Source: a virus
Lineage: Duplodnaviria > Heunggongvirae > Uroviricota > Caudoviricetes
IMG/VR virus record: IMGVR_UViG_3300046516_000964
Reading direction: 5' to 3' (one strand)
Length of the DNA stretch: 64,000 nt
A model generated the notes under the pieces. It searched no databases, had not been told where the DNA came from, and saw only the letters and a program-made list of their open reading frames with translations. How positions within the stretch are numbered: position 1 is the first letter of the stretch; each line of letters opens with the position of its first letter. A program made the translations under genes and the position numbers. Of the stretch, positions 8,358-54,729 are shown one piece after another.

Positions 8358-8375
8358 CGTTTCCTCCGTAACTTG

Positions 8376-9803
8376 TTACGCGTGTTCGCCTTTGGATCCG
8401 GATGCTTCGGCGTCTGACGCCGACTGACCGGTCCCAGAGAGGGAACGCGGACTGAAATCGTGGCCCTTCGTGACCTTCGGCATGCCTGCCTGCTCGTTCA
8501 TCCACGGGAGAGCGGTCTCCCAGTCGATCGGGGCGCCCGCGCGACCGATCCGGTTGATGAAGTTACCGAGGGTGTCGAGGTCAATCGTCTCCGGGTTGCC
8601 GTGGCAGAGCTTCGGCATCTCGTCCTTGCGACCGTTCAGCTCCCACAGTTTCGGGATCACCTGGGTGTTGAACCCCTCACTCATGATGTCGAGGAACGCG
8701 CCGATTCCTACCGTCAGCAGATCTTTCTTCGTGATCGCGAGCGCGTAGGAACCAACCTTGTCCTGCCCCATCATCACCACGTCGGAGAGAACGCTCATCG
8801 CCATCCGTGTCTCGTACCTGGTGATCACCTGGGTGGTGTCGAACTGTCTTGAACCGGCGGAAGCCATCAGGGTGAGCTCCCACCCGAACGGCAGGATCAC
8901 TCCTTCCTGCTCGTCGCGGCGGATCGAAGAAACCACGTTCTTGGCCTGCTGGAACATTGCGGCCATCGCCGGGTCGTTCAGATCCCAGATGTCCACGCCC
9001 TCCGGCGGGATGAGAACAGGCAGGCCGGCCAGGTCGCGCTCGATCCCGATCGCCTCGATCTGCTGAATGTTCTTCACGAACCACCAGGAGCGGTACGCGT
9101 TGCGCAGGACGCTACGCCCCTCCGGGTTATCCTTGAAGATCGTGGTGCGCAAATGCAGCGCTTTTTCACGTGGAATGAACCGGAGCAGATAGTCGGGCGG
9201 GGGGTTCTGGATCATCCCGAGAATGTCACCGGTCTCATCGAACACCCATTTCCACAGTGAGTCCTGCGCCCTCAGGGCGATCTTCGCGAGCCCGATCTGC
9301 CCGTCGGTGAACTTGCTGTTCTGCGCTGGGTTCCGCGAAGTACCCTCGCGGCGCTTGTAGCAGAGCTCGTTGTAGCTGTACCCGTACGGGAGGAACGACA
9401 TCAGTTCGCTGATCGTGTCGGGCCACGAGAACTGCATGTCGTTGATGACCTCGTTCATCCACTTCGAGCCCGGCGTGTCCTGCTCCTCGAACCACCAGGT
9501 GACGCGCCGCATAAGCATCTGAATCGCGTACAGGATCGCCCCGATGATCGGGTCCTGATCCGACATTTCGCGGTAAACCTCGGCTGCGCGACGCCCCTGC
9601 TGGAGCTGCTGCAGCCACTCCTCGAAAACAAAGCCGCCCCAGTGGCGGAGACCGGAGCGGCCGTACTCCTCAAAGATGTTGGCGCCGTACCCCATCGTCT
9701 GCGCCGAGGCGGCTTTCGTCAGGACGATAGGGTCGCGAGGGCCGAAATCCCCCCGGAAAACCTTGATCGCGGGGACCCCGCCGTTCTGTTCGGCGATCAG
9801 CAT
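8376..9803 (-). CDS. Portal protein
   Basis: 475 aa, encoded upstream of the protease, scaffold and major capsid genes; size and composition consistent with a phage portal. Confidence 0.65.
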   Translation of the reverse strand: MLIAEQNGGVPAIKVFRGDFGPRDPIVLTKAASAQTMGYGANIFEEYGRSGLRHWGGFVFEEWLQQLQQGRRAAEVYREMSDQDPIIGAILYAIQMLMRRVTWWFEEQDTPGSKWMNEVINDMQFSWPDTISELMSFLPYGYSYNELCYKRREGTSRNPAQNSKFTDGQIGLAKIALRAQDSLWKWVFDETGDILGMIQNPPPDYLLRFIPREKALHLRTTIFKDNPEGRSVLRNAYRSWWFVKNIQQIEAIGIERDLAGLPVLIPPEGVDIWDLNDPAMAAMFQQAKNVVSSIRRDEQEGVILPFGWELTLMASAGSRQFDTTQVITRYETRMAMSVLSDVVMMGQDKVGSYALAITKKDLLTVGIGAFLDIMSEGFNTQVIPKLWELNGRKDEMPKLCHGNPETIDLDTLGNFINRIGRAGAPIDWETALPWMNEQAGMPKVTKGHDFSPRSLSGTGQSASDAEASGSKGEHA

Positions 9804-9815
9804 GATCCCCGGAGG

Positions 9816-10601
9816 CTATCGGCAGCGGTGATGGCGTCTCATTTCATCGACGAGAATGCCTTTGTTTCGCTCCGCCCGCAGGAGCATGCTGTCGGCTTTC
9901 GTGGTGTAGTTGAGGAGGGTCTCGTTCACGCACGCGAACCGCGCTTTCCGACGGGTCAGGTCGATCCACATGTCCCAGTCCTCGTACCCGCCGCTGATAC
10001 CGGGCCAGCCGGCCATCGCTGGGTGGTACCCGCCGATCTCACGGAGAAGCTCGGTCCGCATCAAAGCACAGTAGAAGTACCTGTTCATCGTCCACAGGAG
10101 TTTCTCCGTCACATTCGCGAGAGGCATGTCGTAGCCCGGCATGTAGTCGCGGTTCCGTGGGGCATCCCCATGCTCCTGCAGTCCGACCAGGACAACGTCA
10201 GCACCCGCCTTGATCACCGGTAGGGTGAGCTCGATGTAGCGCGAGTCGATCCAGTCGTCGGAGTCGAGCGGGAGGAAGAACTCCCCTTTCGCGAGCATCA
10301 GAGCGGTGTTCCGCGCTGCCGGCAAACCCCTGTTGGTGATCTTGGTCGTGCGGATTAGAGGGGAGTACTCCGTCATGAGCACCGGGATATGGGGCTGCTC
10401 CGAACCGTCGTCGACGATGATGATCTCGCGCGGTTTAACGGTCTGGTCGAGCGCGGACTGGACCGCTCTCTCGATGGTCTCCTGCGACTCGTTGAAGTAC
10501 GGGATGCACACCGTGACGCCGTGCGCTCTCGCTTCATCCCGCTCCACGATGTGCTTGTACATCTCGCCGGTGACGAGAGGCTGGGTGGTGCTCATCCCCA
10601 C
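9816..10601 (-). CDS. Glycosyltransferase family 2
   Basis: VCIPYFNESQ...IIIVDDGSEQ and DSDD (DXD): canonical GT-A / GT2 N-terminal signature. Confidence 0.75.
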   Translation of the reverse strand: MGMSTTQPLVTGEMYKHIVERDEARAHGVTVCIPYFNESQETIERAVQSALDQTVKPREIIIVDDGSEQPHIPVLMTEYSPLIRTTKITNRGLPAARNTALMLAKGEFFLPLDSDDWIDSRYIELTLPVIKAGADVVLVGLQEHGDAPRNRDYMPGYDMPLANVTEKLLWTMNRYFYCALMRTELLREIGGYHPAMAGWPGISGGYEDWDMWIDLTRRKARFACVNETLLNYTTKADSMLLRAERNKGILVDEMRRHHRCR

Positions 10602-14308: not shown

Positions 14309-14592
14309 GGCGTCACCCCCGATCGTCTAAAGAGATCCTCGGCGCGAGCAATAAACGTGCGGAGAGGGAGATCGCATTCGTCTTCCGCAAACGGGAGAGC
14401 CTCCACCAGCCCCTGCTGGAGTTCCCAGATGATGTCGATCAGGTCGTCTTCACGCTCCTTCGCTTGCGCCCGAGTTTGTTCGAGCTCGGTCGTGAGTCTC
14501 AATCGTGTCTGGTGTTCCCTCTCAGCGTTCTCCAACCGCTCTGACTCGTAACTTGTTACGAGGTTTCTCATCTGTTGACGAAGATCATTCAC
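14296..14592 (-). CDS. Hypothetical coiled-coil protein
   Basis: 98-aa ORF that fills a gap in the operon; GTG start; contains a palindrome copy read in frame as LVTSYE. Confidence 0.35.
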   Translation of the reverse strand: MNDLRQQMRNLVTSYESERLENAEREHQTRLRLTTELEQTRAQAKEREDDLIDIIWELQQGLVEALPFAEDECDLPLRTFIARAEDLFRRSGVTPWTG

Positions 14593-17065: not shown

Positions 17066-18507
17066 CGGTTAGAACCAGCCCCGCCACCGCCGATCACGAC
17101 AGGAAGAGCTGCCTGTGGCAGGTCCTGGTCTTTCTGCTCGGAAAGAACCGGGTTCTTGGGTTTCGTGTGGATCCTCCACGCCTCCGCCCCGTCCACGTCT
17201 GAGTGCCAGGGGGTTCCGTCGGCGGGGAGCGCAACCGGATCCATTTTTGCTGTTCTCCGCCACGGCATCCGTTTCACGGCGAGCGCCAATGCCATCGCGA
17301 GGTCGTCGGATCCGGACGGGACCTCGTAGCGGACACCCTTGATGCTGTAGGTGAACTCGAACGATTCGAGCTCCTCGCGGAGGGAGCCTTTCCCGTCGCT
17401 TGTCCGTAGGTCGGGAAAACGGATGCTTCCCTCCTGAATCGCGAGCGCTAGTCCTTCGAGGAGATCCTGCCGGCTCCGATCGGTAAACGTGTAGCCGAGG
17501 ACGCGCATGTCACCGCGGCGCTGGAGGTCCTCAACGAGGGCATCGCCGGTGCCGGTCGAGTCGATCAGGCACATGGTCCGTTTCACCCGTTTCGTGACTT
17601 CGGTCATGGTTTCTCGGTGCGGCTTGCGGAACCGATCAACGTGGGTGGCGTTCCCTTTCCTGTCCAAGCAGACGATCGCGGTCCAGTCACGTGACTCAGC
17701 GTCACCAACTTTCTCGATGTTGATCGCTCCGCGCCCCGCAAGGTCGACGCCGGCAGCGAGAGCCATTTCCTCTGAGTAACCTGTTACGCCCTCGCAGCAG
17801 GAGGCGATCGCCGCGATTCCGAACGGGTTGGTGCCGTCGTCGAGCGCTTCCGCCATGTACAGCTGCCGGAACACTTCCTCCTGTCCGAGGCGGTCGAAGT
17901 CCCGTTTCGCGGATTCGATCTCGCCACGGTCGAGAACACCAGCCTGAACAGCGTCCCAAGCTGTAAGACGGTGAAACGCCATGTTGTCGGCGCCGGATTC
18001 AGCGAGACGGGAAAGGCGGTAAAACCAGTTTTTGCGCCCTCGCACGTTCCCGATGATCCTTACGGGCCCCTGTGTGTAGGTGAGGGTGGAACGAACAGCG
18101 TGCCATGATTCCTCGCGCATGCGGGAGGCTTCGTCGAGAACAGCCCCGTACACATCCTCGCCGTAAAGGTCGTCAGGGCGCTCCCCGGATTTGAACCAGA
18201 TGCGGGTCCCGTTCGGCATGGTGATGTACATGCTCGACTGGTTGCGTTTGCACATCGTTTTGATGGGTGTGACCATCGCCCAGCAGCGACGGAACGCGAT
18301 CTCCGCCTGCCCGAACACGGGGGCAACCCACCAGTAGTTCCAACCCGACCGTCCTTTCAGTGACTGCTCGACGATCCAGGCGAGACACCCAACGGTTTTC
18401 CCGGCTTTGGTGGACGCCTCAATGCAGCTGATCCGGTTTTCGTCGTAGATCGCCGCGCGCTGTTTCGGGTAGAGGGGAGCACCTTCGAAACGGATGGTGC
18501 GGGCCAC
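17047..18507 (-). CDS. Terminase large subunit
   Basis: 486 aa; Walker A-like IEASTKAGKTVG near the N-terminus; GTG start; first gene of the minus-strand late operon. Confidence 0.85.
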   Translation of the reverse strand: MARTIRFEGAPLYPKQRAAIYDENRISCIEASTKAGKTVGCLAWIVEQSLKGRSGWNYWWVAPVFGQAEIAFRRCWAMVTPIKTMCKRNQSSMYITMPNGTRIWFKSGERPDDLYGEDVYGAVLDEASRMREESWHAVRSTLTYTQGPVRIIGNVRGRKNWFYRLSRLAESGADNMAFHRLTAWDAVQAGVLDRGEIESAKRDFDRLGQEEVFRQLYMAEALDDGTNPFGIAAIASCCEGVTGYSEEMALAAGVDLAGRGAINIEKVGDAESRDWTAIVCLDRKGNATHVDRFRKPHRETMTEVTKRVKRTMCLIDSTGTGDALVEDLQRRGDMRVLGYTFTDRSRQDLLEGLALAIQEGSIRFPDLRTSDGKGSLREELESFEFTYSIKGVRYEVPSGSDDLAMALALAVKRMPWRRTAKMDPVALPADGTPWHSDVDGAEAWRIHTKPKNPVLSEQKDQDLPQAALPVVIGGGGAGSNRWSGGG

Positions 18508-18526
18508 GCGCGGGAGCGTAGCACGC

Positions 18527-18560
18527 CCTAGACACTCCTACCCGTTGGTTGGTATACTTA
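18527..18560 (+). promoter_or_regulatory. SigA-like promoter P1
   Basis: -35 TAGACA (18529-18534), 18-nt spacer, extended -10 tgGTATACT (18553-18558). It is one of four near-identical copies. Confidence 0.5.
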
Positions 18561-18641: not shown

Positions 18642-18655
18642 CGTAACTTGTTACG
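18642..18655. repeat. Palindrome CGTAACTTGTTACG
   Basis: Lies in the P1 leader, 20 nt upstream of the ATG at 18676; followed by an RBS, GAGAGGAGGG. Confidence 0.6.
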
Positions 18656-18675
18656 GAATCTATGAGAGGAGGGCC

Positions 18676-19529: not shown

Positions 19530-19543
19530 CGTAACACGTTACG
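19530..19543. repeat. Palindrome CGTAACACGTTACG
   Basis: 22 nt upstream of the ATG at 19566, before the RBS AGAGGAG. Confidence 0.6.
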
Positions 19544-21004: not shown

Positions 21005-21018
21005 CGTAACGTGTTACG
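21005..21018. repeat. Palindrome CGTAACGTGTTACG
   Basis: 9 nt upstream of the ATG at 21028. Confidence 0.55.
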
Positions 21019-22221: not shown

Positions 22222-22301
22222 GCGTCTGGACGCTCGTCCTCATCTACCTGGCGGGCGCCGCAACCGTGATCGCCGTCCAGTACGCCCGGCACCGCCCGTA
22301 A
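22218..22301 (+). CDS. Small membrane peptide (27 aa)
   Basis: Not in the ORF track. GTGA overlap with the upstream stop; VSVWTLVLIYLAGAATVIAVQYARHRP; its TAA stop lies inside a palindrome copy, as for many other genes. Confidence 0.4.
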   Translation: MSVWTLVLIYLAGAATVIAVQYARHRP

Positions 22302-22310
22302 CACGTTACG
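22297..22310. repeat. Palindrome CGTAACACGTTACG
   Basis: 21 nt upstream of the GTG at 22332. Confidence 0.6.
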
Positions 22311-22331: not shown

Positions 22332-22580
22332 GTGGAAGTGAGGTTCACGGAAACAGTCGATGAGCGGATGCCAACGTTCATCGGTGAGTACGACACCGAC
22401 CTCGACATCAACGGTAAAACCGTCAAGGTCAGCGGGGAGATAGCACGGGTCGGGAGCGGGGAAGCGTTCCTGCACAGCCTCACGATCGACTGTCAGGAAG
22501 GCATCACCGACCAGGAGCTCGCCGCGCTCCCCATCGAGGAGATCTCCAAGCTCGCCAAAACACACTTCAAACCCACGTAA
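22332..22580 (+). CDS. Hypothetical protein
   Basis: 82 aa; GTG start. Confidence 0.5.
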   Translation: MEVRFTETVDERMPTFIGEYDTDLDINGKTVKVSGEIARVGSGEAFLHSLTIDCQEGITDQELAALPIEEISKLAKTHFKPT

Positions 22581-22589
22581 CAAGTTACG
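22576..22589. repeat. Palindrome CGTAACAAGTTACG
   Basis: Contains the TAA stop of the 22332..22580 gene. No gene follows; an intrinsic terminator does. Confidence 0.55.
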
Positions 22590-22655: not shown

Positions 22656-22907
22656 TCAGTACGGGTGCGCGCACTCCCCCAGCTCGTACGCGTGAAACCG
22701 CCATCTCGCGTAATCCTCCGCGCGTTTCACCGCAGCAGCCCGTAACGCGTTACGTTCCCGCTCCGTCGGCGGTCGCAGCCCTTTCCCGTCCATGTCCATC
22801 ATTCCGGGCGGCTCCAAAACATGGAGGCGAGCTCTTCTCAAGCACTCCTCCAACGGGGTCGGGTGCTCACGCATACGTCGACCCTCCGCACCCATTGCAC
22901 AGCACAC
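22656..22907 (-). CDS. Hypothetical protein
   Basis: 83-aa ORF convergent with the plus-strand block; contains an in-frame palindrome copy near 22741. Confidence 0.4.
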   Translation of the reverse strand: MCCAMGAEGRRMREHPTPLEECLRRARLHVLEPPGMMDMDGKGLRPPTERERNALRAAAVKRAEDYARWRFHAYELGECAHPY

Positions 22908-26086: not shown

Positions 26087-26101
26087 CGTAACCGCGTTAC
26101 G
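26087..26101. repeat. Palindrome CGTAAC-CGC-GTTACG (3-nt spacer variant)
   Basis: 27 nt upstream of the GTG at 26129. Confidence 0.5.
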
Positions 26102-26128: not shown

Positions 26129-26563
26129 GTGATAGAACCGGCATCAGTCCGGCAAGCGGCCGAGAACCTCATCGTGCAGCACGGGCTCACAGGCTGGACG
26201 TTCGAGTGGGACGACACACTCACCACCGTCGGACGGTGCTTCCACAAGCGGAAGCAGATCACCGTCTCCCACCATTTCCTCGACAGCCCCGTGAAAGTCA
26301 TCGCGAACACGCTGCTCCACGAGGTGTCACACGCGATCGCCGGACCAAACCACGGTCACGACGACCACTGGTACCGGATCGCGCTCAAACTCGGCTGCAC
26401 CGGCACAACCTGCGCCGAAGGCGCCGTGCGCTCAGGTGACAAGCGTTACCTGCTCACCTGCCGCACCTGTAAGCGCACCTGGAAGCGTCACAAGCTCACC
26501 TACCGCTTCCCGCTCTGCCCGTACTGCAAGAAGATGCTCCACATCCACGACAACCACGCGTAA
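26129..26563 (+). CDS. SprT-like zinc metallopeptidase
   Basis: WTFEWDDTLTTVGRCFHKRKQITVSHHF...LLHEVSHAI (HExxH) plus a C-terminal CxxC...CxxC zinc ribbon. Confidence 0.7.
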   Translation: MIEPASVRQAAENLIVQHGLTGWTFEWDDTLTTVGRCFHKRKQITVSHHFLDSPVKVIANTLLHEVSHAIAGPNHGHDDHWYRIALKLGCTGTTCAEGAVRSGDKRYLLTCRTCKRTWKRHKLTYRFPLCPYCKKMLHIHDNHA

Positions 26564-26572
26564 CGAGTTACG
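26559..26572. repeat. Palindrome CGTAACGAGTTACG
   Basis: Contains the SprT TAA stop; 21 nt upstream of the GTG at 26594. Confidence 0.6.
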
Positions 26573-27546: not shown

Positions 27547-27580
27547 CCTAGCCATTCCTACCCAGAAGGGGGTATACTTG
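27547..27580 (+). promoter_or_regulatory. SigA-like promoter P2
   Basis: -35 TAGCCA (27549-27554), 18-nt spacer, -10 ggGTATACT (27573-27578). Confidence 0.5.
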
Positions 27581-27678: not shown

Positions 27679-27692
27679 CGTAACCAGTTACG
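27679..27692. repeat. Palindrome CGTAACCAGTTACG
   Basis: Lies in the P2 leader, 22 nt upstream of the ATG at 27715. Confidence 0.6.
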
Positions 27693-28247: not shown

Positions 28248-28435
28248 GGGGCGGCACCACAGGTTGTTTCTACATCGTCATCAGGCGTTTACCGGACGGC
28301 GTTGTCGAGCATAAACGCTGGCCGATGGTAGACCCGCATGACCCCGGCACGTGTATGTCAGCACGGATGAGCGCAAAAGCAGTAAGCGGGGAAGTATGGA
28401 TGGTGACACCCGCTATTTGCGCACCGCTGCCGTAA
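28244..28435 (+). CDS. Hypothetical protein
   Basis: GTGA overlap with the upstream stop; its TAA stop lies inside the next palindrome copy. Confidence 0.4.
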   Translation: MRGGTTGCFYIVIRRLPDGVVEHKRWPMVDPHDPGTCMSARMSAKAVSGEVWMVTPAICAPLP

Positions 28436-28444
28436 CTTGTTACG
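28431..28444. repeat. Palindrome CGTAACTTGTTACG
   Basis: 27 nt upstream of the ATG at 28472. Confidence 0.6.
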
Positions 28445-29089: not shown

Positions 29090-29311
29090 ATGAGGAAGCT
29101 CTACTGCTACGACGGTCCCCGAGGGACAGACCCGCACGCCATCATCATCGAGCTGAACGACCCCGACGCGTTGCGATGGGAACAAGCAAAAGAACACAGG
29201 GTCTCAGTTGTTGTCACGGATCAGGCAACACACAAGTACTGGATTGTTTCATCAGCACCATGCGGAGCGTCGTGTCATTGCGCCGCGATGGCCGTCAGAT
29301 ATTCAACGTAA
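29090..29311 (+). CDS. Hypothetical protein
   Basis: Start MRKLYCYDG after the RBS GGAGAAACC. The ATG at 29060 listed in the track lies inside a hairpin (GCCCGCAT-CAT-GCGGGC). Confidence 0.45.
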   Translation: MRKLYCYDGPRGTDPHAIIIELNDPDALRWEQAKEHRVSVVVTDQATHKYWIVSSAPCGASCHCAAMAVRYST

Positions 29312-29320
29312 CTTGTTACG
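29307..29320. repeat. Palindrome CGTAACTTGTTACG
   Basis: Contains the TAA stop of the upstream gene; 15 nt upstream of the GTG at 29336. Confidence 0.6.
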
Positions 29321-30569: not shown

Positions 30570-30772
30570 TACGCCTCGGAATCATTCTTGTGTTCCTGAT
30601 CGTGTTCTTCTTCATGTTCCGCTGGTTCTACCGTAACGTCGTTACACCCGCTCTTCACGACAGACACCAGAAGAGCGTTCAGGAGATCGAGAAGGAAAAC
30701 AGCGAGCTCGACGAAGCTCTTGCTCGCATGCATACCGAAAAATCAACGTTCGCTAAGGAAAAGGAGAAATAG
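30566..30772 (+). CDS. Small membrane protein
   Basis: GTGA overlap with the upstream stop; one TM helix (LGIILVFLIVFFFMF) followed by a coiled coil. Confidence 0.45.
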   Translation: MIRLGIILVFLIVFFFMFRWFYRNVVTPALHDRHQKSVQEIEKENSELDEALARMHTEKSTFAKEKEK

Positions 30773-31702: not shown

Positions 31703-31716
31703 CGTAACTAGTTACG
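31703..31716. repeat. Palindrome CGTAACTAGTTACG
   Basis: 17 nt upstream of the ATG at 31734. Confidence 0.6.
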
Positions 31717-33177: not shown

Positions 33178-33589
33178 GCTCCAACTTAAAGTTCAGCACC
33201 CCCTCGCCGTCGCCGGCGAACTCGATCCGAGTGGGAATGTGGTACCGCTCTGGCATCCGTCGTTCAAGCAACCACTCAAGGTGCTTGGTGTCGTACTCCT
33301 TGATCACACCGACCATCTCACCGCGCTGGAATACGGGGCGTTCGTTCGGCTCAACGGCCCTGCGCATTGCCTCGTATTCCAGAGCATCGTTCATCATGCG
33401 GTACGCCTGCTCCAACATCATTTTGAACGTGGGCTCTGCTTTCGCTCGCTCTTTGACGACGTTCTCGTGAATGCCTGCAACATCACAGGCCTTGCCGAGA
33501 ATGCCGTATTCAGTCAGAAGAGCATCGAAGAACTTCTTCTCCCACGGTTCCGGCGAATAGCCGCCATCTTCGTAACTTGTTACGCTCAT
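33143..33589 (-). CDS. HTH DNA-binding protein (terminase small-subunit-like N-terminus)
   Basis: N-terminal helical, DNA-binding-like region (WEKKFFDALLTEYGILGKACDVAGIHENVV). Its start codons ATG AGC GTA ACA AGT TAC GAA are a palindrome copy. Confidence 0.45.
   Translation of the reverse strand: MSVTSYEDGGYSPEPWEKKFFDALLTEYGILGKACDVAGIHENVVKERAKAEPTFKMMLEQAYRMMNDALEYEAMRRAVEPNERPVFQRGEMVGVIKEYDTKHLEWLLERRMPERYHIPTRIEFAGDGEGVLNFKLELNPGGQKEDEE
33571..33584. repeat. Palindrome CGTAACTTGTTACG
   Basis: Embedded in the start of the 33143..33589 gene and the end of the ParB-like gene. Confidence 0.5.
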
Positions 33590-34738: not shown

Positions 34739-34772
34739 CCTAGCTATATCTACCCGAAGAGGGGTATACTGT
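34739..34772 (+). promoter_or_regulatory. SigA-like promoter P3
   Basis: -35 TAGCTA (34741-34746), 18-nt spacer, -10 ggGTATACT (34765-34770). Confidence 0.5.
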
Positions 34773-34881: not shown

Positions 34882-34895
34882 CGTAACTCGTTACG
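34882..34895. repeat. Palindrome CGTAACTCGTTACG
   Basis: Lies in the P3 leader, 20 nt upstream of the ATG at 34916. Confidence 0.6.
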
Positions 34896-35547: not shown

Positions 35548-35771
35548 TGGGAGCACCACAAAAAGAAACTCGGGTAACTCAGCGAGCGCGGAGAGGAATC
35601 ACCGCGAAGGGGACTTCCACGTCCGTCTATCTGCTGCCCGGTGACGAAGAACAACTGAAGATCATTCAGGACGAACTCGGATCGAGTATGTCAGATGCAA
35701 TCCGTACCTCAATCCGTGTGTACGCCGCGATCATCACTCAGATGAAGCGGACAAGACCACCGCGTAACTAG
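35547..35771 (+). CDS. RHH-like DNA-binding protein
   Basis: TSVYLLPGDEEQLKIIQDELGSSMSDAIRTSIRVYA. Confidence 0.45.
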   Translation: MGAPQKETRVTQRARRGITAKGTSTSVYLLPGDEEQLKIIQDELGSSMSDAIRTSIRVYAAIITQMKRTRPPRN

Positions 35772-35776
35772 TTACG
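35763..35776. repeat. Palindrome CGTAACTAGTTACG
   Basis: Contains the TAG stop of the upstream gene; 24 nt upstream of the ATG at 35801. Confidence 0.6.
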
Positions 35777-37296: not shown

Positions 37297-37557
37297 GTGC
37301 CGATCACTGATCCTGAGAGAAAGCGAGAAGTCACGAAGGCGTGGCGTGAGAAGAAGATGAAAGAGGGGTACGGAAAAGCCCTGTGGCGGCGGCGAGCTCA
37401 CATCTACAAGAACGAAGAGACACTGAGGATGGGATTGGAAAACGTTCTTCACTCGGCCCGTGAAGCCTCAGAAACACCCACATGGATCATCCAACGTTTG
37501 GAGCGACTCCTGGAGTCCGCGCCGGCAGTGGGAAAACCGGCCGACTATATGGAGTAA
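37297..37557 (+). CDS. Hypothetical basic protein
   Basis: 86 aa; GTG start; its TAA stop lies inside a palindrome copy. Confidence 0.45.
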   Translation: MPITDPERKREVTKAWREKKMKEGYGKALWRRRAHIYKNEETLRMGLENVLHSAREASETPTWIIQRLERLLESAPAVGKPADYME

Positions 37558-37566
37558 CTCGTTACG
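37553..37566. repeat. Palindrome variant AGTAACTCGTTACG
   Basis: 9 nt upstream of the GTG at 37576. Confidence 0.5.
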
Positions 37567-39247: not shown

Positions 39248-39261
39248 CGTAACAAGTTACG
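39248..39261. repeat. Palindrome CGTAACAAGTTACG
   Basis: 15 nt upstream of the GTG at 39277. Confidence 0.6.
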
Positions 39262-40805: not shown

Positions 40806-40819
40806 CGTAACTTGTTACG
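40806..40819. repeat. Palindrome CGTAACTTGTTACG
   Basis: 25 nt upstream of the GTG at 40844. Confidence 0.6.
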
Positions 40820-41834: not shown

Positions 41835-42524
41835 ATGCTGTACACCGCAACCGTGACGGGCGTGACAGGCCGCACCGTTACACGGAAGAAAGACAACAAG
41901 ACGATCACGATCTACGAGGTCACCGACTCCGCCGGCAACACGAACGCGACGAGTCGGAGGGACATCGCGAACGAAGCCAACAGGCTGCTCAACCAAGTCG
42001 CTGAGTTCCAGGTGCGGGTGGAGCAGAACGGCTCGTACGAGAACCGCTACCTCGATGACATCAAGGCGGCGACAGGGGCGCCGCAGCCGGGCGGTCTGCC
42101 GGCACCACCACCACCACAGCAGGAGGTTGTTGTGCGGCAGGAAGCGATCCCTGTGCAGCAGGCCGCTGTTTCGCCGCCACGCACAGACGATCCCGCGATC
42201 AAGCACGAGGGTGAGGGGACACAGAAGGACTGGTCGATCTGGCGTCAGACCTCCACGAAGGTGGCCGTGCATCTGTCTGCGACACCGCAGGAGTTCTGGT
42301 TCAACGTGCGCCAGCTGATGACGTTCTACGCGACCGGGCTCGAGCCCGACTTGCCTCAGGCAGGCGTAACTAGTTACGCTACCCAGACGCAGCCTTCACC
42401 GGCGGCGCAAGCGCAGAACGCACAGCAGAACCAGTTCATCCCGGATTCAGCGATCGAAGGGGACCCCGGGCCGGCAGGAGGGTGGCCGAGCGACGATGAC
42501 ATCCCGTTCGCTCCCACCTTTTGA
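41835..42524 (+). CDS. SSB-like protein with a C-terminal acidic DDDIPF motif
   Basis: Beta-rich N-terminal domain, a Pro/Gln-rich linker and ...SDDDIPFAPTF near the C-terminus, as in the SSB client-binding tail. Contains an in-frame palindrome copy (GVTSY). Confidence 0.45.
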   Translation: MLYTATVTGVTGRTVTRKKDNKTITIYEVTDSAGNTNATSRRDIANEANRLLNQVAEFQVRVEQNGSYENRYLDDIKAATGAPQPGGLPAPPPPQQEVVVRQEAIPVQQAAVSPPRTDDPAIKHEGEGTQKDWSIWRQTSTKVAVHLSATPQEFWFNVRQLMTFYATGLEPDLPQAGVTSYATQTQPSPAAQAQNAQQNQFIPDSAIEGDPGPAGGWPSDDDIPFAPTF

Positions 42525-45510: not shown

Positions 45511-46904
45511 AGCTCCTGCTGGGTGACTGCATCGAGAAGATGCGCGAGCTCCCAATGGAGTCTGTTGATGCTGTCGTGACCGACCCACCGTACGGGTTGG
45601 AGTTCATGGGCAAAGACTGGGACTCGTTCGGTGACATGCGCCAGCCGTTCAAGGACGATCTACAGGTATCGCCCGGCCCGATGGGACGGATGAAGGTGCG
45701 CCCATCAGGGACAGGCTCCTACGTGAAGGACCCTCGTCCTGCGATGCGCTCGTTTCAGTCGTGGTGCGAGACGTGGGGGACGGAGGCGTACCGATCGCTA
45801 AAGCCAGGCGGGTACCTGCTTTCGTTCGGAGGGACACGCACCTACCATCGTCTCACAGCAGGGTTGGAGGATGCCGGGTTTGAGATACGCGACTGTCTGA
45901 TGTGGCTGTACGGCTCCGGGTTCCCGAAGTCACTGAACCTCCCCGGTGGGTTGGGCACGGCACTGAAGCCAGCGTGGGAGCCGATCGTGATTGCACGCAA
46001 ACCACTGGACGGGACGGTGGAGCAGAACGTAACGCGTTACGGCACCGGAGCCATGAACATTGATGAGACCAGGGTCGGCGAGTCGAAACGAGCGCCCGCT
46101 TCCCCATCGCAGACGGACAGTACGCTCACCTACGGGGCGTACAAGACCGGGGAAGGAAGACTAGGCACCGGGTTCGACACAGACATTGGGCGCTGGCCCG
46201 CCAATCTGATCCTCTCCCACCACCCTGACTGTGTGTACGTGGGCACCTTCACGGGCCCGGGGAGAAAGATGAACCGGTATACGGACGGGCTGAAACCGTT
46301 CGGTGGCGGGAAGGGGCATCCGAGCACGCAGGAGACGACGCCTGACGAACCGTTCGAGTCTTGGGACTGCACCGACGACTGCCCGGTCAAGATCATGGAT
46401 CAACAGTCCGGTGACCGTCCGGCCGGCGGCAAGGTGAAAGGGACGGAGCCGTCACACACAGGCCAGGGAGGCATCTATGGCGTGTGGGAGCGTGTTGAGA
46501 ACAGCCCGTACAACGACACGGGTGGGGCGTCACGATTCTTCTACTGCGCCAAGACCACCAGGACGGAGCGCGGCGCCGGAGTTTCACGTGAAAACGATCA
46601 TCCCACGGTGAAGCCGATCGAGCTGATGCGCTACTTGGTCCGGCTAGTCACACCCGCCGACGGGGTTGTGCTCGACTGCTTCCTTGGCTCAGGAACCACC
46701 GCGGTCGCTGCTCTCCTGGAACACCGCACGTTCATCGGGATCGAACGGGAGCCCGACTACATGAAGATCGCGAAAGAGCGGGTGCAGTACTGGCAGCAGC
46801 ACGGTGAGGACGGCTGGCGCATCGCCGCCGAGAAGGAAGCATCGGAAGCACGGCAGGAGCGAGTCAAGTCGACAGGGCAGCTCAACCTGATGGACGCGCT
46901 GTGA
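45507..46904 (+). CDS. DNA N6-adenine / N4-cytosine methyltransferase (beta-class)
   Basis: DAVVTDPPYG (motif IV) near the N-terminus and VLDCFLGSGTT (motif I, FxGxG) near the C-terminus. TTGA overlap start (the listed ATG at 45474 is 37 nt inside the upstream gene). Confidence 0.75.
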   Translation: MKLLLGDCIEKMRELPMESVDAVVTDPPYGLEFMGKDWDSFGDMRQPFKDDLQVSPGPMGRMKVRPSGTGSYVKDPRPAMRSFQSWCETWGTEAYRSLKPGGYLLSFGGTRTYHRLTAGLEDAGFEIRDCLMWLYGSGFPKSLNLPGGLGTALKPAWEPIVIARKPLDGTVEQNVTRYGTGAMNIDETRVGESKRAPASPSQTDSTLTYGAYKTGEGRLGTGFDTDIGRWPANLILSHHPDCVYVGTFTGPGRKMNRYTDGLKPFGGGKGHPSTQETTPDEPFESWDCTDDCPVKIMDQQSGDRPAGGKVKGTEPSHTGQGGIYGVWERVENSPYNDTGGASRFFYCAKTTRTERGAGVSRENDHPTVKPIELMRYLVRLVTPADGVVLDCFLGSGTTAVAALLEHRTFIGIEREPDYMKIAKERVQYWQQHGEDGWRIAAEKEASEARQERVKSTGQLNLMDAL

Positions 46905-47997: not shown

Positions 47998-48188
47998 TGG
48001 CGAAGATCAAGGAGGGCCCGCCCTTCAACACCGGTTCGAAGCATGTTGCTCTTCACGCGAGCCTGCTCCCGAGAGACCAGGATCTGCTGGTCTGGATCAC
48101 GGAGTATTTGGGATGCAATCGTTCGGAGGCCGTGCGCACATCCATCCGTATGGCTGCTGGAATGCTTGCGAAAACCCAGCGCGACTAA
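47997..48188 (+). CDS. Hypothetical protein (possible RHH)
   Basis: 63 aa; ATGA overlap with the upstream stop. Confidence 0.4.
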   Translation: MAKIKEGPPFNTGSKHVALHASLLPRDQDLLVWITEYLGCNRSEAVRTSIRMAAGMLAKTQRD

Positions 48189-48246: not shown

Positions 48247-48447
48247 TTGAACCCTCTAACGGATCGGCAACTACAGGTTGCTCGCCTCATATCGGAAGGT
48301 CTCTCGGACCTGGAGATAGCGGAACGATTGGGGATCATGGAACGCACCGTCAGGTCCCACGCTGACACGATCAAGGCAAAGCTTGGCGTGAGCAGGAAAC
48401 GAGAGATCCCCGCGGCGATGCGACGGTTCGGGCTCCTAGAGCCGTAA
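48247..48447 (+). CDS. LuxR/GerE-family HTH regulator
   Basis: LTDRQLQVARLISEGLSDLEIAERLGIMERTVRSHADTIKAKLGV; TTG start after the RBS GAGGAGGTG. Confidence 0.55.
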   Translation: MNPLTDRQLQVARLISEGLSDLEIAERLGIMERTVRSHADTIKAKLGVSRKREIPAAMRRFGLLEP

Positions 48448-48456
48448 CTAGTTACG
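48443..48456. repeat. Palindrome CGTAACTAGTTACG
   Basis: Contains the LuxR gene's TAA stop; 14 nt upstream of the TTG at 48471. Confidence 0.6.
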
Positions 48457-48833: not shown

Positions 48834-49716
48834 ACCGGACGAGACCGAAGTGGAGAGCATCCACGCGAACTCGAAGATCGAGGAGGTTCTCCTGAGCCGC
48901 CTGCAGATCGACTGGTCCTACCAGCGCGACATCTCTGAAGCGGTTGTGGATGAAATCGCGGCCGACTGGGATATCGTTGCTTCCGAGCTGATCCTGGTCT
49001 CGAACCGCGGTACGCGTCCAGCTGACGGAGAAATCAAGGGCGGTCTGTTCGTTGTGAACGGGCAGCACCGTTCGAAGGCAGCGCAGAAGAAAGGCATGAC
49101 GAAGATCTGGGCTCGCGTGATCGACTTGCGCAAGCACGAAGACCCGGGTTCCGTCGAGGCCGGCTTCCGTCTCAAGACGAACAAGCGTCTCGGTGACCGC
49201 CCGTTGGAGCGGTTCAAGGCGCAGCTGCGCTCCGGGAACGAGGAGTCCCTGGCGATCGTGAAGATCCTGAAGAAGCTCGAAACGGAGATCAACCAGGCGG
49301 CGCAGCCCGAGACCGGGATCAACTGCGTAGCGACGATCGAGCAGGTGTACCGCTACGACGACGGCCAGCTCCTTAGCGACACCGGGAAGCTGATCGTCGA
49401 CACGTTCAAGTACTTCGGCGGCAAGAACGCGCACTCCGCGTTCATCAAGGGTACCGCGTGGTTCATCGACAAGCACGCCGAGGAAGCGAACCGCGAACGG
49501 TTCATCGGTCGGCTGCAGTCGCTCGGTCAGGGAACGCTCGTCACTCGCGCCCGCGCCACAGGCCTGACGATGGGTGGCTCGCTGTGGCTGAACTACTACC
49601 GTGCGATGGTGGAGCTCTACAACGAGGGCCTGCGCGAACGGAACCGGCTGCACTGGAAGTACCGTGGCTCCGGCTCGCTCGAAAGCGCGAAGGCAGGCGC
49701 TGTTAACCGTTCGTGA
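48796..49716 (+). CDS. ParB-like nuclease domain protein
   Basis: ELILVSNRGTRPADGEIKGGLFVVNGQHRSKAAQKKGMTKIWARVIDL (ParB N-terminal domain motif). Start ATG at 48796 after GGAAGGGAGCAA (the listed ORF begins at 48679 inside the upstream gene). Confidence 0.55.
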   Translation: MVVAQAEAPVAAEPDETEVESIHANSKIEEVLLSRLQIDWSYQRDISEAVVDEIAADWDIVASELILVSNRGTRPADGEIKGGLFVVNGQHRSKAAQKKGMTKIWARVIDLRKHEDPGSVEAGFRLKTNKRLGDRPLERFKAQLRSGNEESLAIVKILKKLETEINQAAQPETGINCVATIEQVYRYDDGQLLSDTGKLIVDTFKYFGGKNAHSAFIKGTAWFIDKHAEEANRERFIGRLQSLGQGTLVTRARATGLTMGGSLWLNYYRAMVELYNEGLRERNRLHWKYRGSGSLESAKAGAVNRS

Positions 49717-50008: not shown

Positions 50009-50500
50009 GTGAGGAGATTCGCTCTCATATGGTTTGTTCTGTACTGCATCGCCATCGCTGCCTCGTCAGCAACAGCCAATGCAGCGTCGACGATCACCAG
50101 GCACGATCGGGACGTGATCAGGTTCTTCCACCACCACCCTCAACTCGCGGCAACACCGGCGGGTGCCAAGGTGCTGGCGGAGCTTCTACCACGGGTAGTT
50201 CGTTCGTTGCAGGCAGCAGAGCAACCAGCATGGCCAGCCCACCACCAACTCTGGCTGTGCATCAACGACAACGAGTCCAAAGACAACTGGGCGGGAGTTA
50301 ACCCCAATGGTCATTACGGCGGATTGCAGATGCACGAGTACTGGGGGTACGGGACCAGCCGTTATGCGAGTGATGATTCGCAGCTCGTTCAGGAGCAGGC
50401 AGCCGAGAGGGCGTACGCCGCCTCGGGGTATTCGAGCTCGTTTCTGTACGATCAATGGTTCGATTACGACTACGCGAGTTACTGCCTGAAGTACGCCTAG
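50009..50500 (+). CDS. Secreted transglycosylase-like (Rpf / SLT-like) protein
   Basis: Signal peptide (FALIWFVLYCIAIASSATANA) plus CINDNESKDNWAGVNPNGHYGGLQM...W...C. Confidence 0.5.
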   Translation: MRRFALIWFVLYCIAIAASSATANAASTITRHDRDVIRFFHHHPQLAATPAGAKVLAELLPRVVRSLQAAEQPAWPAHHQLWLCINDNESKDNWAGVNPNGHYGGLQMHEYWGYGTSRYASDDSQLVQEQAAERAYAASGYSSSFLYDQWFDYDYASYCLKYA

Positions 50501-50529
50501 ACATACATACCTATAGGTTGGTATACTAT
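50496..50529 (+). promoter_or_regulatory. SigA-like promoter P4
   Basis: -35 TAGACA (50498-50503; the TAG is the stop codon of the upstream gene), 18-nt spacer, -10 tgGTATACT (50522-50527). Confidence 0.5.
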
Positions 50530-50644: not shown

Positions 50645-50658
50645 CGTAACTGGTTACG
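50645..50658. repeat. Palindrome CGTAACTGGTTACG
   Basis: Lies in the P4 leader, 26 nt upstream of the ATG at 50685. Confidence 0.6.
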
Positions 50659-51017: not shown

Positions 51018-51018
51018 C

Positions 51019-51621
51019 GTGGCCGGCGAGAAAGCACCAACACCCATCCACCCAGGCGAGGCTGCGAAGAAGCTCCGCTTCATCGCAGGAGAACTGCGTA
51101 CGCTCCTCCAAAACTTTCCCGCTACATCAGGGGGGGGCGGCGGAGCGGGTAGTGACGCTAACTCCTACAGGGTCACAGCTGACGAAAACCAGGGGCGGCT
51201 AGATATCGCCCTGGGTTCTCTACAGGTGGCGATCGAAAGTCGCAGAGCGGCAGAAGGCAGGGATGCTCTCGACACGGTGCGAATGTACATTCGCAGGGAG
51301 CGCGAATACCGCGTTTACGCATACAACACTGCAGTTGGCAGCGGCAGCAGTTCTCCCCCTGTTTCGACAATGGCCGCGATCAAGAAGAACGTCGGCCTGA
51401 TCTACGATCTCGCTCAGCAGTTCCCGACTAGCTCCGACCTTCCGACCGGGAACATGCAGAACATGCTCCGCGCGATCATGGCGATCCTCCGCACCGGAGG
51501 ATACCCGGGCGCGGAGACACTCATCTGGGAGGAGGTGATCAAGGATGCCAAGGCCAAGGAGACCAAGAACAACGGCAGCGAAGCCGAAGCCGCAATCGCA
51601 GCAGCAGTCGCAGGGGGCTGA
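51019..51621 (+). CDS. Hypothetical protein
   Basis: 200 aa; GTG start 1 nt after the upstream stop. Confidence 0.5.
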   Translation: MAGEKAPTPIHPGEAAKKLRFIAGELRTLLQNFPATSGGGGGAGSDANSYRVTADENQGRLDIALGSLQVAIESRRAAEGRDALDTVRMYIRREREYRVYAYNTAVGSGSSSPPVSTMAAIKKNVGLIYDLAQQFPTSSDLPTGNMQNMLRAIMAILRTGGYPGAETLIWEEVIKDAKAKETKNNGSEAEAAIAAAVAGG

Positions 51622-51649
51622 CCAAACCGCCCTCGACGAAGAAAAAACC

Positions 51650-52498
51650 ATGATGCCCGGGTACGTGTTCCCCGGGAAGATGTGGGAGAGCAAGACGCCG
51701 TTCGATTACGTGACCGACAAGTCGACCGGCAAGCGACCGAACATGGCGATCGCACCGACCGGCGCGATCGTGCACGACCTCCGGCCGGGGATCGAAGGGG
51801 CCGTGATCCCGCCGAAGCCGATCTGGAACGCCGGGAAGTACTTCCCGGAGCTGAAAAAGGAGGCCCAGGAGGCCCTCGAAGAGAGGGTCGCCGAGAAGGA
51901 TCGGTACAACTCGTGGGTGGTGACCGGGGAGTACAGTCCCGGGAACTACATCGCACGGATCTACATCCTTCCGAACATCGAGGCGAACCAACCAGACCCC
52001 GACCATCCTCTCGACTGGTCGGAATGGATGCGGAAGGGTAACTCCGTTACGTCCCACTACGCTGATCAACGCGGCGGCAGAGGGAACGGATTCGGTTTCG
52101 GTGGGTTCGGTTCTCCCCCTCCTGCTGTAGCCAGGGGAGCCTCGACCGAAACCAAGCCGGCAACTCCCCCTCCCCCAGCCAAACCAGCGGTCCCGATGAG
52201 CATTCGCATCAGGTGCGGCGGGTGCGGGCACTGGTTCAAGATGGACAGCCTCGGGTCGCACGCCGAGTATTGCTGCCCCGGTATCAACGGACCCGAGTCC
52301 GACTGGGCAATGCAGTGCGAGTGCTGCGAAGAGCTCGACCAGGTGCAGACGCTCAAGCCGGGGTTCCCTCGCCCCAAGAAGGTCGAACCCAAGAAGAAGG
52401 AGGTGAAGAAAAGTGACGCTGACACATCCGATGCTGCCGCAGAGCCTGCGGGAGCTGGAGCCGACGCAGCGGCGAAAGCTGTGGCAAGCGGTGACTGA
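51650..52498 (+). CDS. Hypothetical Cys-rich protein
   Basis: CGGCGHWFKMDSLGSHAEYCCPG...CECCEELD. Start is probably the ATGATG at 51650 (the listed ORF begins at 51545 inside the upstream gene). Confidence 0.45.
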   Translation: MMPGYVFPGKMWESKTPFDYVTDKSTGKRPNMAIAPTGAIVHDLRPGIEGAVIPPKPIWNAGKYFPELKKEAQEALEERVAEKDRYNSWVVTGEYSPGNYIARIYILPNIEANQPDPDHPLDWSEWMRKGNSVTSHYADQRGGRGNGFGFGGFGSPPPAVARGASTETKPATPPPPAKPAVPMSIRIRCGGCGHWFKMDSLGSHAEYCCPGINGPESDWAMQCECCEELDQVQTLKPGFPRPKKVEPKKKEVKKSDADTSDAAAEPAGAGADAAAKAVASGD

Positions 52499-52859
52499 CT
52501 CGATTGGGATGATCCGGTCGGGAAGGTGGTGCCGAAACACAACAAGGAGCAACGAAGGGGCTCATTGCGCCCTCGGTCTTATCAGCGCGTCATGCCAGGG
52601 TGACTGGGTGGTCTCTGACGCGATGAAAGAGCTGCTCGACGCTGCGATTCCACAAGAAGAGTTCCATGCTTTGGAGGCTCGCGTCAGTGCAGCCAGAGGT
52701 CGGCGAGACAGCTACATGGAGCACAGTGGGTACTGGCGTGGGGGCGATTCCAAGACCGGAAGGATCGCCAGCTTCAACAACACTCGCCCCACCGAGAGGG
52801 AAGTGGCGGCCTGGTTCGAGGACGCGCGAGAGCTACTCGAACAAACACCGACCGCGTAA
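52431..52859 (+). CDS. Hypothetical protein
   Basis: Start is ambiguous (GTG 52413 or ATG 52431); its TAA stop lies inside a palindrome copy. Confidence 0.4.
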   Translation: MLPQSLRELEPTQRRKLWQAVTDSIGMIRSGRWCRNTTRSNEGAHCALGLISASCQGDWVVSDAMKELLDAAIPQEEFHALEARVSAARGRRDSYMEHSGYWRGGDSKTGRIASFNNTRPTEREVAAWFEDARELLEQTPTA

Positions 52860-52868
52860 CTAGTTACG
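52855..52868. repeat. Palindrome CGTAACTAGTTACG
   Basis: 21 nt upstream of the TTG at 52890. Confidence 0.6.
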
Positions 52869-53690: not shown

Positions 53691-54398
53691 ATGTCCGTCA
53701 TGCAGGAAGTCTCCAAGCATGTCGCGGTCCCGACACTCGACCCCGACGCGCTCAAGAAGGAGATCGTGATGCTCGGAGAGCGGCGCGAAAGTCTTCTTCC
53801 CGGCGAAACCGTTCTGCGGGAATGGATCGACCGTAGGGCCGAGAATCTCAAGATCGTCGCGAACTCGTATCACCTGAGCACTCGCGAAGGCAGGTCGCTA
53901 CCAGTGCTCGACCCCGTCGTGCTCGACTGGCGTCACGCTCGGAGACCGCACCGCGTTCCCGTCCCGAAGCTCGCGCTCGTCCCAGTCATGGAGAGCGACA
54001 CGATGCTTTTCCGGACAGACGGTCAGCAAACTGGTCCGGCGATCAAGGGCTACCACTACAGGGACGTCAACGAAGCACTCCACAACTGGCGTCGACGCGA
54101 CGATCGCAGCAGGGTCGGGCTCGAATGGAAGTTCAACGGCACAATCCCGAACGAGGAGCGTGAGCTGATCACCAGGGAGGCCGGCAACTACGAGCAGATC
54201 TTCCTGCTCGCGGACGCCCCGCCAGAGAGCTGGAAGTGGGTTATCGGGGACAAGATCGAGCGCCCCAAGGTCGCCCGCTGGGATCCGATCATCCTCGGGT
54301 ATCACAGCGGCGTGTTCGTCGTGCTCGGACAGTTCGACCCGACCCCGCTGGAGCTCTACGTGGCGGCGGAGTTCACGCACCGCCAGCTAGGAGCATGA
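53691..54398 (+). CDS. Hypothetical protein
   Basis: 235 aa; RBS AAAGGAGAGCT (the listed ORF begins at 53649). Confidence 0.55.
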   Translation: MSVMQEVSKHVAVPTLDPDALKKEIVMLGERRESLLPGETVLREWIDRRAENLKIVANSYHLSTREGRSLPVLDPVVLDWRHARRPHRVPVPKLALVPVMESDTMLFRTDGQQTGPAIKGYHYRDVNEALHNWRRRDDRSRVGLEWKFNGTIPNEERELITREAGNYEQIFLLADAPPESWKWVIGDKIERPKVARWDPIILGYHSGVFVVLGQFDPTPLELYVAAEFTHRQLGA

Positions 54399-54700
54399 CC
54401 GCCCTCACGAGGATCTGGCCGTGGCACATCAGGTTCGGGCAGATCGTGGCCCTGATCCTCACCGTCGGGCTGCTCGGAGCGGCAGGAGCGCTTCTCTCAG
54501 CCTGGCCGTACGGATATGCGACTCAGGTCCCGCACGACCCGATCGTCCACTACACAACAACCGCGAAAACGGTCGGGTACCACACCTTCCACCACGGGAC
54601 CCCGGCGATCATGCTGATCGGAGGGTTCATGGCCCTCATCTTCGGCGGTCTGTGTGTCGTCGCCTTCATCGTGCTCAAAGAAACGTGGGAGGACATCTAG
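54395..54700 (+). CDS. Membrane protein
   Basis: ATGA overlap with the upstream stop; two TM helices (IVALILTVGLLGAAGALL, IMLIGGFMALIFGGLCVVAFIVL). Confidence 0.5.
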   Translation: MTALTRIWPWHIRFGQIVALILTVGLLGAAGALLSAWPYGYATQVPHDPIVHYTTTAKTVGYHTFHHGTPAIMLIGGFMALIFGGLCVVAFIVLKETWEDI

Positions 54701-54715
54701 CACCGTAAGAGGTAG

Positions 54716-54729
54716 CGTAACTTGTTACT
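54716..54729. repeat. Palindrome variant CGTAACTTGTTACT
   Basis: Lies after the last plus-strand gene and before the terminators. Confidence 0.4.

Follow-up and report, generated by a model that had tools for sequence, protein, structure and literature searches.

We found that a 64-kb stretch of DNA from an uncultivated tailed phage (IMG/VR record IMGVR_UViG_3300046516_000964; this whole stretch of 64,000 nucleotides, nt, is called the window below) contains 33 copies of one palindrome, CGTAAC-NN-GTTACG (CGTAACNNGTTACG), 19 of which stand a short and restricted distance ahead of a start codon, and that related phages carry other palindromes in the same layout. The sites are under selection, and the palindrome has been re-specified from lineage to lineage. 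In the reading that we favour, and to which we give an even chance, the copies would be dispersed operators in duplex DNA for a phage ribbon-helix-helix (RHH) protein that controls the early cistrons. A preliminary description of this DNA had offered both a DNA operator and an RNA hairpin as explanations. Both survive our analysis, and the lineage-specific palindromes, together with an RHH protein strand that tracks palindrome class, make the evidence lean to the DNA operator.

The window has a GC content of 60% and the gene layout of a tailed phage. The minus strand carries the structural genes, including the terminase (17047-18507), the portal (8376-9803) and collagen-like fibres. The plus strand holds about 75 early genes in the interval from 18.7 to 54.7 kb.

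Abundance and form of the palindrome

Dinucleotide shuffles of the window gave an expectation of 0.00 exact copies versus the 24 observed, which rules out chance or a compositional artefact and bears out the enrichment that the preliminary description had reported. When one mismatch was allowed, 29 copies were found against 0.04 expected, and all five mismatches fall on the outermost base; the 10-base core GTAAC-NN-GTTAC (GTAACNNGTTAC) is perfect in 29 copies. Cores with one mismatch are at chance level in the window (1 versus 0.6 expected). Three further copies have a spacer of 3 and one has a spacer of 4, which brings the total to 33. Invariant arms enclose a free centre of 2-3 nt, which shows no strand bias in the window.

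The 22 intergenic and six coding positions listed earlier all carry the motif, with two corrections. The copy at 26087..26101 is a 15-bp form with a spacer of 3 (CGTAACCGCGTTACG) and not a one-mismatch copy, and the copy at 14547..14560, taken to be coding, lies outside a gene, 7 nt past the stop codon of the minus-strand gene 14589-15401. The list was also incomplete, as it overlooked two one-mismatch copies (17775 and 55091), two with a spacer of 3 (30632 and 52037) and the one with a spacer of 4 (1173).

About 25 sites lie on the plus-strand early block, roughly one per 1.4 kb, and their spacing is more even than random (coefficient of variation 0.60 versus 0.97, P=0.002); the structural genes hold only about six to eight. 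Approximately ten copies are intragenic, where roughly 0.03 would be expected. Outside the early block these include the spacer-4 variant GGTAACTCCCGTTACG (1173..1188) within the collagen-like gene 612-2402, an exact copy (2843..2856) within the minus-strand gene 2733-3140, read in the frame V-T-S-Y, and one-mismatch copies within the terminase gene (17775..17788, differing at the outer base), within the minus-strand gene 54877-55536 (55091..55104) and near the 3' end of the minus-strand gene 61134-63911, which encodes a 925-aa protein (61204..61217). In the early block they include exact copies within gene 41835-42524 (42365..42378) and within the methylase gene 45507-46904 (46028..46041), and spacer-3 variants within genes 30563-30772 (30632..30646) and 51545-52498 (52037..52051). 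Coding copies are indeed restricted to the frames V-T-x-Y and R-N-x-L, as had been observed. This restriction is a trivial consequence of a stop codon in the third frame.

Placement relative to start codons, stop codons and promoters

A start codon follows 9-27 nt downstream of 19 of the 33 copies, an arrangement expected by chance for 4% (p~6e-18), and the spacing range given in the preliminary description therefore holds for these copies. In 19 copies a Shine-Dalgarno sequence begins 0-18 nt after the motif. The ribosome-binding site itself is ordinary, and the invariant palindrome is a separate element upstream of it.

Each of the four strong promoters has a copy in its leader, as claimed earlier. 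These promoters, all on the plus strand, share an extended 45-nt consensus consisting of TAGnCA-N18-TATACT followed by TAGTGTGGG. They lie at 18529..18558 (TAGACA-N18-TATACT), 27549..27578 (TAGCCA-N18-TATACT), 34741..34770 (TAGCTA-N18-TATACT, as read from the sequence) and 50498..50527 (TAGACA-N18-TATACT). GC-rich hairpins occur in their leaders, which measure 105-145 nt, and one stretch of leader (34808-34844) shares 89% identity with the leader that precedes a different operon in L208 (L numbers denote related loci, described below). The leader copies are all exact and sit 77-111 nt downstream of the -10 element and about 20-26 nt ahead of the start codon: 18642..18655 (+20 nt to the start), 27679..27692 (+22 nt), 34882..34895 (+20 nt, the start being that of the RHH gene at 34916) and 50645..50658 (+26 nt). 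The palindrome is not itself a promoter element, since it has no conserved -35 sequence upstream, its flanks are not conserved and it lies well downstream of the real promoters.

In nine cases the upstream gene stops at the TAA or TAG of the motif itself. This overlap had been described before, for ten or more genes. In seven of the nine, on the plus strand, a start codon also follows: 26559..26572 (stop of 26129-26563; start +21 nt), 28431..28444 (28244-28435; +27 nt), 29307..29320 (29060-29311; +14 nt), 35763..35776 (TAG stop of the RHH paralogue 35547-35771; start of the Ku gene +24 nt), the one-mismatch copy 37553..37566 (37297-37557; +9 nt), 48443..48456 (GerE gene 48247-48447; +14 nt) and 52855..52868 (52413-52859; +21 nt), the others being exact. 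The same arrangement is mirrored on the minus strand, as had been noted, where the exact copy 8367..8380 contains the portal stop and the next gene starts 9 nt off at 8357. The ninth, 22576..22589, is exact and closes an operon: it contains the stop of 22332-22580 and is followed by a terminator at 22617-22640.

The remaining start-linked copies are exact except for the spacer-3 copy 26087..26101 (start +27 nt). They are 19530..19543 (+22 nt), 21005..21018 (+21 nt, in a 135-nt gap), 22297..22310 (+21 nt), 31703..31716 (+17 nt, 2 nt past a stop codon), 39248..39261 (+24 nt) and 40806..40819 (+24 nt). Among the other copies, 33571..33584 (exact) lies where the minus-strand genes 33586-34494 and 33143-33589 meet, and 54716..54729 (one mismatch) closes the plus-strand early block, 28 nt ahead of a terminator at 54758-54783.

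One more exact copy (22741..22754) lies in a poorly coding region of 1.4 kb (22600-24070) that separates two early operons. This region has three copies of GAGCAGCATTGT spaced by 22 nt, two of ACCTAGACCTTTGGGGGGGG spaced by 23 nt and a 32-nt inverted repeat whose arms are separated by 161 nt; it is possibly an origin of replication or else a region used in packaging. A second repeat, CGTAACGG(C/G)GAAACG, carries one half-site of the palindrome and occurs at 23464-23482, 23771-23789 and ~24668, that is, within the non-coding region and also in a leader, that of gene 24704-25732, which is highly codon-biased and without a full palindrome.

Palindromes of related phages

Relatives of the phage are metagenomic contigs, the distant ones having been found by way of the terminase and of DUF6551, a conserved gene that more than 140 contigs bear. 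A close relative (IMG/VR 3300047160), whose terminase is 85% identical, has the motif at syntenic places. The same motif is found at syntenic sites in L117, L208, L071, L273 and L274, at protein identities of 50-85%. For example, the copy at the portal stop has a syntenic counterpart in L117 (11430), the copy at 48443 in L273 and L274, and that at 52855 in L071, L273 and L274. Intragenic copies are also kept, at 17271 in L117 for the copy at 2843 and in the methylase gene of L273 for that at 46028; the copy in the terminase gene is not kept in L208.

More distant relatives preserve the order of stop codon, palindrome, ribosome-binding site and start codon, with other palindromes. Phages A and B have CGTCAG-N3-CTGACG (32 copies in 58 kb of phage A), L235 and L280 have CGTCAC-ANT-GTGACG (12 and 7 copies), L275, L276 and L277 have (T/C)GTGAC-AT-GTCAC(A/G) (5-7 copies per locus), and L281 has CCGTTGC-AT-GCAACGG (11 copies). 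L273 and L274 have CGTAAC-N2-GTTACG, as in the window (10 and 7 copies), and L279 has the related form xGTAAC-N2-GTTACx (12 copies). All these palindromes fit the scheme CGT-xyz-N2/3-z'y'x'-ACG. Copies are uniform inside each genome and changed in concert between genomes, and this combination points to a lineage-specific trans-acting reader encoded by the phage. It is noteworthy that orthologues of gene 41835-42524 bear the palindrome of their own genome in four lineages (the window, L273, L274 and phage A), and that the phage A orthologue of gene 14589-15401, whose stop codon precedes the copy at 14547 in the window, has the phage A motif inside the gene.

Slots bounded by the motif are filled by non-homologous genes in different relatives, as seen for 18642-19543 of the window versus L208 and for 11075-11816 of L273 versus 9805-10436 of L274. 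Mosaic joints thus coincide with the palindrome.

Candidate binding proteins

The leading candidate for the reader is a 63-aa RHH protein encoded on the plus strand at 47997-48188. All relatives share a gene order in which this small RHH gene is followed by a gene for a 120-aa protein and then by the DUF6551 gene. We screened nine proteins conserved in 21-kb neighbourhoods for covariation with the palindrome. The RHH protein showed the largest split of the nine, with 66% identity between genomes of the same motif and 48% between genomes of different motifs; the other eight differed by 1-13 points. The variable part is the N-terminal strand, which reads HVALHASL in all three CGTAAC genomes and is class-specific elsewhere, phage A having TGSYSLYQ. 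RHH proteins put their N-terminal strand into the DNA major groove. A profile of the small protein family (alignment A3) matched the strand-plus-helix of a LAGLIDADG homing endonuclease (...D..LL..I..YLGcG) in the PDB at E 1e-5; despite this match the predicted fold of the family is RHH.

Two other RHH genes lie on the plus strand. A 74-aa paralogue of the candidate is encoded at 35547-35771, with its stop codon inside the copy at 35763, and an 82-aa protein (Pfam RHH_1 / RepB-RCR_reg; 34916-35164) is the product of the first gene after the promoter at 34741 and the copy at 34882. A GerE/LuxR-type helix-turn-helix protein of 66 aa (48247-48447, plus strand) is a weaker candidate. Its presence does not track the motif, as L279 and L278 share the core but have no such protein, and L281 has one together with a different motif; moreover, one GerE protein was found in the window where two LuxR-type proteins had been reported. 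The palindrome was also considered as a restriction or methylation target. The identity of the methylase partly tracks motif class and its gene holds a copy, but several palindrome-bearing relatives are without a methylase, and this candidate was rejected.

Two ParB-like proteins are encoded in the window, a 297-aa DUF6551 protein (48823-49716, plus strand) and a ParB_N-like protein (33586-34494, minus strand). Directly behind the copy at 35763 is a gene for a Ku-family protein (PF02735, E 3e-24; 35801-36571). Phage-encoded Ku is known from Corndog and Omega.

DNA or RNA as the target

The variation of the palindrome suggests that DNA rather than RNA is recognized. In 11 genomes taken together, perfect cores number 141 and variants with a single mismatch 26. 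Of these variants three only are compatible with G:T wobble pairing, nine being A:C and 14 other mismatches, which indicates that base identity and not pairing is selected. Changes of the arms are seen only between genomes and not among the copies within one. Invariant arms with a free, unpolarised centre are the pattern of a two-fold symmetric DNA binder, and Cluster O repeats (discussed below) have it too. The intragenic copies, which recur at syntenic places despite deep divergence, and the even spacing in the early block also favour duplex DNA. As free RNA, the hairpin is worth -1.3 kcal/mol with a spacer of 2 and -3.6 kcal/mol with a spacer of 3, yet spacer 2 outnumbers spacer 3 by 29:3. 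Folding at the motif, proposed earlier as a check, gave a divided answer. In the window the stem is weak, with a mean probability in context of 0.44, a bimodal distribution and region z-scores near 0, and it is not extended, as flanking positions pair at the chance level of 25% Watson-Crick; in relatives it is stable, with a probability of 0.87.

On the DNA operator reading, a lineage-specific protein encoded by the phage would recognize the palindrome as duplex DNA, as a symmetric dimer or a dimer of dimers. The binder would be the 63-aa RHH protein, possibly with its 74-aa paralogue. Its sites would occupy the promoter leaders, almost every gene junction without overlap and, where no junction is available, the interior of genes. 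Once bound, it would work as a dispersed operator or a roadblock, similar in effect to stoperators, and may shut down or time the early genes cistron by cistron and strengthen insulation at operon ends.

Several observations weigh against this mechanism. Spacers of 2 and 3 are exchanged at orthologous sites, as at 19530 of the window and its spacer-3 counterpart in L208, a switch that a rigid dimer would not easily accommodate. Of the 17 copies in L273 and L274, 15 have AA at the centre when read in the mRNA sense, although the centre is free in the window, and such polarity is something that a symmetric DNA binder cannot see. Placement tracks the Shine-Dalgarno sequence and not the promoter. 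Even in long leaders and gaps (18642, 21005, 22297, 27679, 34882 and 50645) the copy is kept within 27 nt of the start, and a roadblock has no obvious need for such proximity. L279 and L278 share the GTAAC-N2-GTTAC core yet have a different RHH strand, and the covariation covers 11 genomes and neighbouring genes only, without phylogenetic correction. Some copies of phage A, L235 and L281 form the tip of hairpins of 17-21 bp (TAGTT...AACTA) with G.U pairs, and these long hairpins fold 7-12 kcal/mol better in the sense than in the antisense orientation; other copies in the same genomes cap intrinsic terminators. Finally, no integrase or immunity-type repressor was found by Pfam among the early proteins, with about 14 kb of the phage genome falling outside the window, so a lysogenic role like that of stoperators is unlikely.

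Much of this would fit an RNA operator, a stem-loop 5' of each Shine-Dalgarno sequence that a lineage-specific phage protein binds or cuts, which we consider possible but rather unlikely. It could gate translation, as the MS2 coat protein and T4 RegA do, or process or stabilise polycistronic mRNA, as Csy4 and RNase III sites do. The 19 start-linked copies, with every long leader among them, favour it, as do the same placement in every relative and in Cluster EG phages, the tolerance of spacer lengths 2, 3 and 4, the AA centre in mRNA sense, and the long hairpins of phage A, L235 and L281, in which the palindrome is the apex between compensatory flanks with G.U pairs and which are sense-stable or terminators. 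It is opposed by the weakness of the hairpin in the window, by a loop that is free while every stem base is invariant and wobble variants are not tolerated, and by the preference for spacer 2, the weakest hairpin. Nor does it account for the approximately ten intragenic copies, conserved or recurrent, that lie far from ribosome-binding sites, or for the operon-end copies at 22576 and 54716, which have no downstream cistron. No RNA-binding protein or ribonuclease was identified as its partner.

The long hairpins themselves also exist apart from the palindrome. They form a unit of ~50 nt, GTAGTTGA...TTGAACTAC followed by a ribosome-binding site, which is present in phage A (L238, sense 16698-19068), L235 (10880-12847) and L281 (1001). 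The foot is kept across lineages and has stop codons in two frames, and the apex is usually the palindrome of that genome; however, one phage A copy has an unrelated apex, that is, the unit also occurs without the palindrome. It is absent from the window, where the copies are bare 14-mers. The overlap of palindrome and long hairpin may be an economical packing of the former into the apex of the latter.

A related idea, which we hold to be doubtful, is that the palindrome serves as a punctuation mark for cistrons in the transcript. A minimal stem-loop, placed ahead of some 20 Shine-Dalgarno sequences as well as at the ends of operons, would let a co-evolving protein gate translation or process early mRNAs. 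If so, one phage family would have re-specified this palindrome-protein pair at least five times. We know of no regulon-wide translational operator system of this kind in a tailed double-stranded DNA phage.

Other explanations

Since mosaic joints coincide with the palindrome, it could also be a module boundary at which the 14-mer and the ribosome-binding site provide homology at cassette borders, gene conversion keeps the copies uniform and no dedicated binder is needed. We consider this improbable. Exchanged cassettes are bounded exactly by copies, as the window and L208 differ in the first early cassette and the motif-flanked slot of L273 holds genes non-homologous to those of L274, and within-genome uniformity extends to the fixed, oriented centre in L273 and L274. 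But strict dyad symmetry of a separate palindrome in each lineage is left unexplained, as are a centre that drifts between arms that never do and the conserved intragenic copies. In addition, homologous recombination would have only a very short stretch of 14 bp to act on, Pfam revealed no site-specific recombinase, and the fact that mosaic joints fall at regulatory sites could be an effect and not the cause.

Even less probable, to our mind, are parS- or Noc-like loading sites through which the DUF6551 protein (48823-49716) or the ParB_N-like protein (33586-34494) would organise, silence or partition the genome. The ParB-like gene adjoins the RHH gene in all relatives, the sites are dispersed, fairly evenly spaced and in part intragenic, and Cluster O phages likewise encode a protein with a ParB-like domain. 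However, the identity of DUF6551 barely differs by motif (66% in same-motif versus 60% in different-motif genomes) and no ParA was seen. To our knowledge, parS sites normally do not tolerate changes of spacer, which also counts against such sites here.

Three further candidates were rejected. The sequence CGTAACAAG matches the universal 3'-end sequence of 16S rRNA, but complementarity to the rRNA does not apply, as the sense form in L273 and L274 is identical and not complementary to it and a 6-mer match is expected by chance. A serine-recombinase crossover site, with inverted arms and a 2-bp core, would require a recombinase, and none was found. Repetitive extragenic palindromes (REP) are imperfect palindromes of 20-40 nt with a GTAG head, served by a Y1 HUH transposase (REP-associated tyrosine transposase, RAYT); no Y1_Tnp domain was detected by Pfam, and the window copies are bare 14-mers without extended arms.

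Source phage and other features of the window

Megablast against INPHARED (50,697 deposited phages) revealed no near relative, and tblastn of the same collection with the RHH protein or its 120-aa neighbour gave no isolated relatives; DUF6551 had matches there of only ~25% identity. The best matches of the portal, at ~40% identity, are in Arthrobacter and Gordonia phages, and one homologue sits in an Actinomycetota metagenome-assembled genome. Together with the GC content of 60%, these matches may point to an actinobacterial host. The same phage was recovered in Logan assemblies in contigs of up to 78.5 kb, and no prophage copy was found in 185,579 species genomes. A scan of IMG/VR with the 14-mer returned mostly single chance matches, and scans with the Band_7 and methylase proteins turned up no close relatives.

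No known RNA family was found, tRNA being the only RNA detected. A tRNA-Lys(UUU) at 37207-37279 was confirmed by ARAGORN and Rfam, and a second call by ARAGORN only (21419-21515), 97 nt long and within a gene, is probably false. On the minus strand, 5783-8194 encodes an 803-aa fusion of NUDIX, histidine-phosphatase and S78 prohead-protease domains, which is unusual for a capsid maturation protease.

Comparison with known systems

Dispersed perfect palindromes have been reported in several clusters of actinobacteriophages for more than ten years with no function shown. The closest in form are those of the Cluster O mycobacteriophages such as Corndog, which contain 34 copies of a 17-bp dyad repeat, TGTTCGG-NNN-CCGAACA, with no function assigned; the authors predict a dimeric DNA binder and state that the repeats are not closely linked to translation starts (PMC4351075). 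Both systems have perfectly invariant arms, a short free centre and dozens of copies that are denser in the non-structural arm, about a third of them intragenic; both are conserved across the cluster and accompanied by a protein with a ParB-like domain. Cluster O phages have no integrase, and none was found here among the early proteins. Unlike the Cluster O repeats, which differ in sequence and length, 19 of the 33 copies described here are linked to starts. In addition, no lineage-specific variants were reported for Cluster O, and its phages have no detectable sequence relationship to the window phage.

Closer in placement are the 18-bp inverted repeats GATCAACC-NN-GGTTGATC of the Microbacterium Cluster EG phages such as Hyperion, also with no function assigned, which lie in short intergenic regions 14-22 bp upstream of starts and are kept despite differing flanking genes (PMC7302621). 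They share with the palindrome the two inverted arms, the separation of 2 bp and the intergenic, start-proximal position. They differ in having only 8-10 copies, arms of 8 bp and another sequence, and neither intragenic copies nor overlap with stop codons is reported for them. The start-associated sequences (SAS) and extended start-associated sequences (ESAS) of Clusters K and EF are likewise repeats associated with starts, and have a partner element upstream, within the intergenic gap. However, SAS is the ribosome-binding site itself and ESAS is weakly conserved (PMC7302621). Here, in contrast, the invariant element is the palindrome upstream of an ordinary ribosome-binding site.

The preliminary description had likened the layout to the stoperators of Cluster A phages. 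The stoperators of L5 are validated DNA sites in short intergenic gaps, and gp71 is the immunity repressor; Cluster A stoperators are asymmetric 13-14-mers in a fixed orientation to transcription in temperate phages, and serve as a model for silencing by blocked elongation. The analogy is sound for the layout, as both systems have dozens of genome-wide sites in short intergenic gaps, many of them distant from promoters, and in both the site and the protein change together between lineages. It does not extend to asymmetry or orientation, since the site here is a palindrome without polarity in the window, nor to an integrase or immunity repressor, neither of which was found. On the RNA side, the MS2 coat-protein operator, lambda boxB and Csy4-type hairpins are present at 1-2 sites per genome and have critical loop bases. 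Like the palindrome, they are short stem-loops near a ribosome-binding site with a cognate protein, in lineage-specific pairs. The palindrome differs from them in its 33 sites, free loop and invariant stem.

In summary, the motif belongs with the dispersed start-associated inverted repeats of actinobacteriophages, a descriptive class of the Cluster O and Cluster EG type. At least five palindromes in one layout, and an RHH strand that changes with the palindrome, provide a testable operator-protein pair. Such a pair could explain the timing of early genes in lytic actinophages without classical promoter operators, and might be a source of orthogonal operator/repressor pairs of 14-16 bp. What is new here in comparison with these known systems is that, judging from sequence comparison, a single phage family appears to have re-specified its palindrome several times together with an RHH protein.

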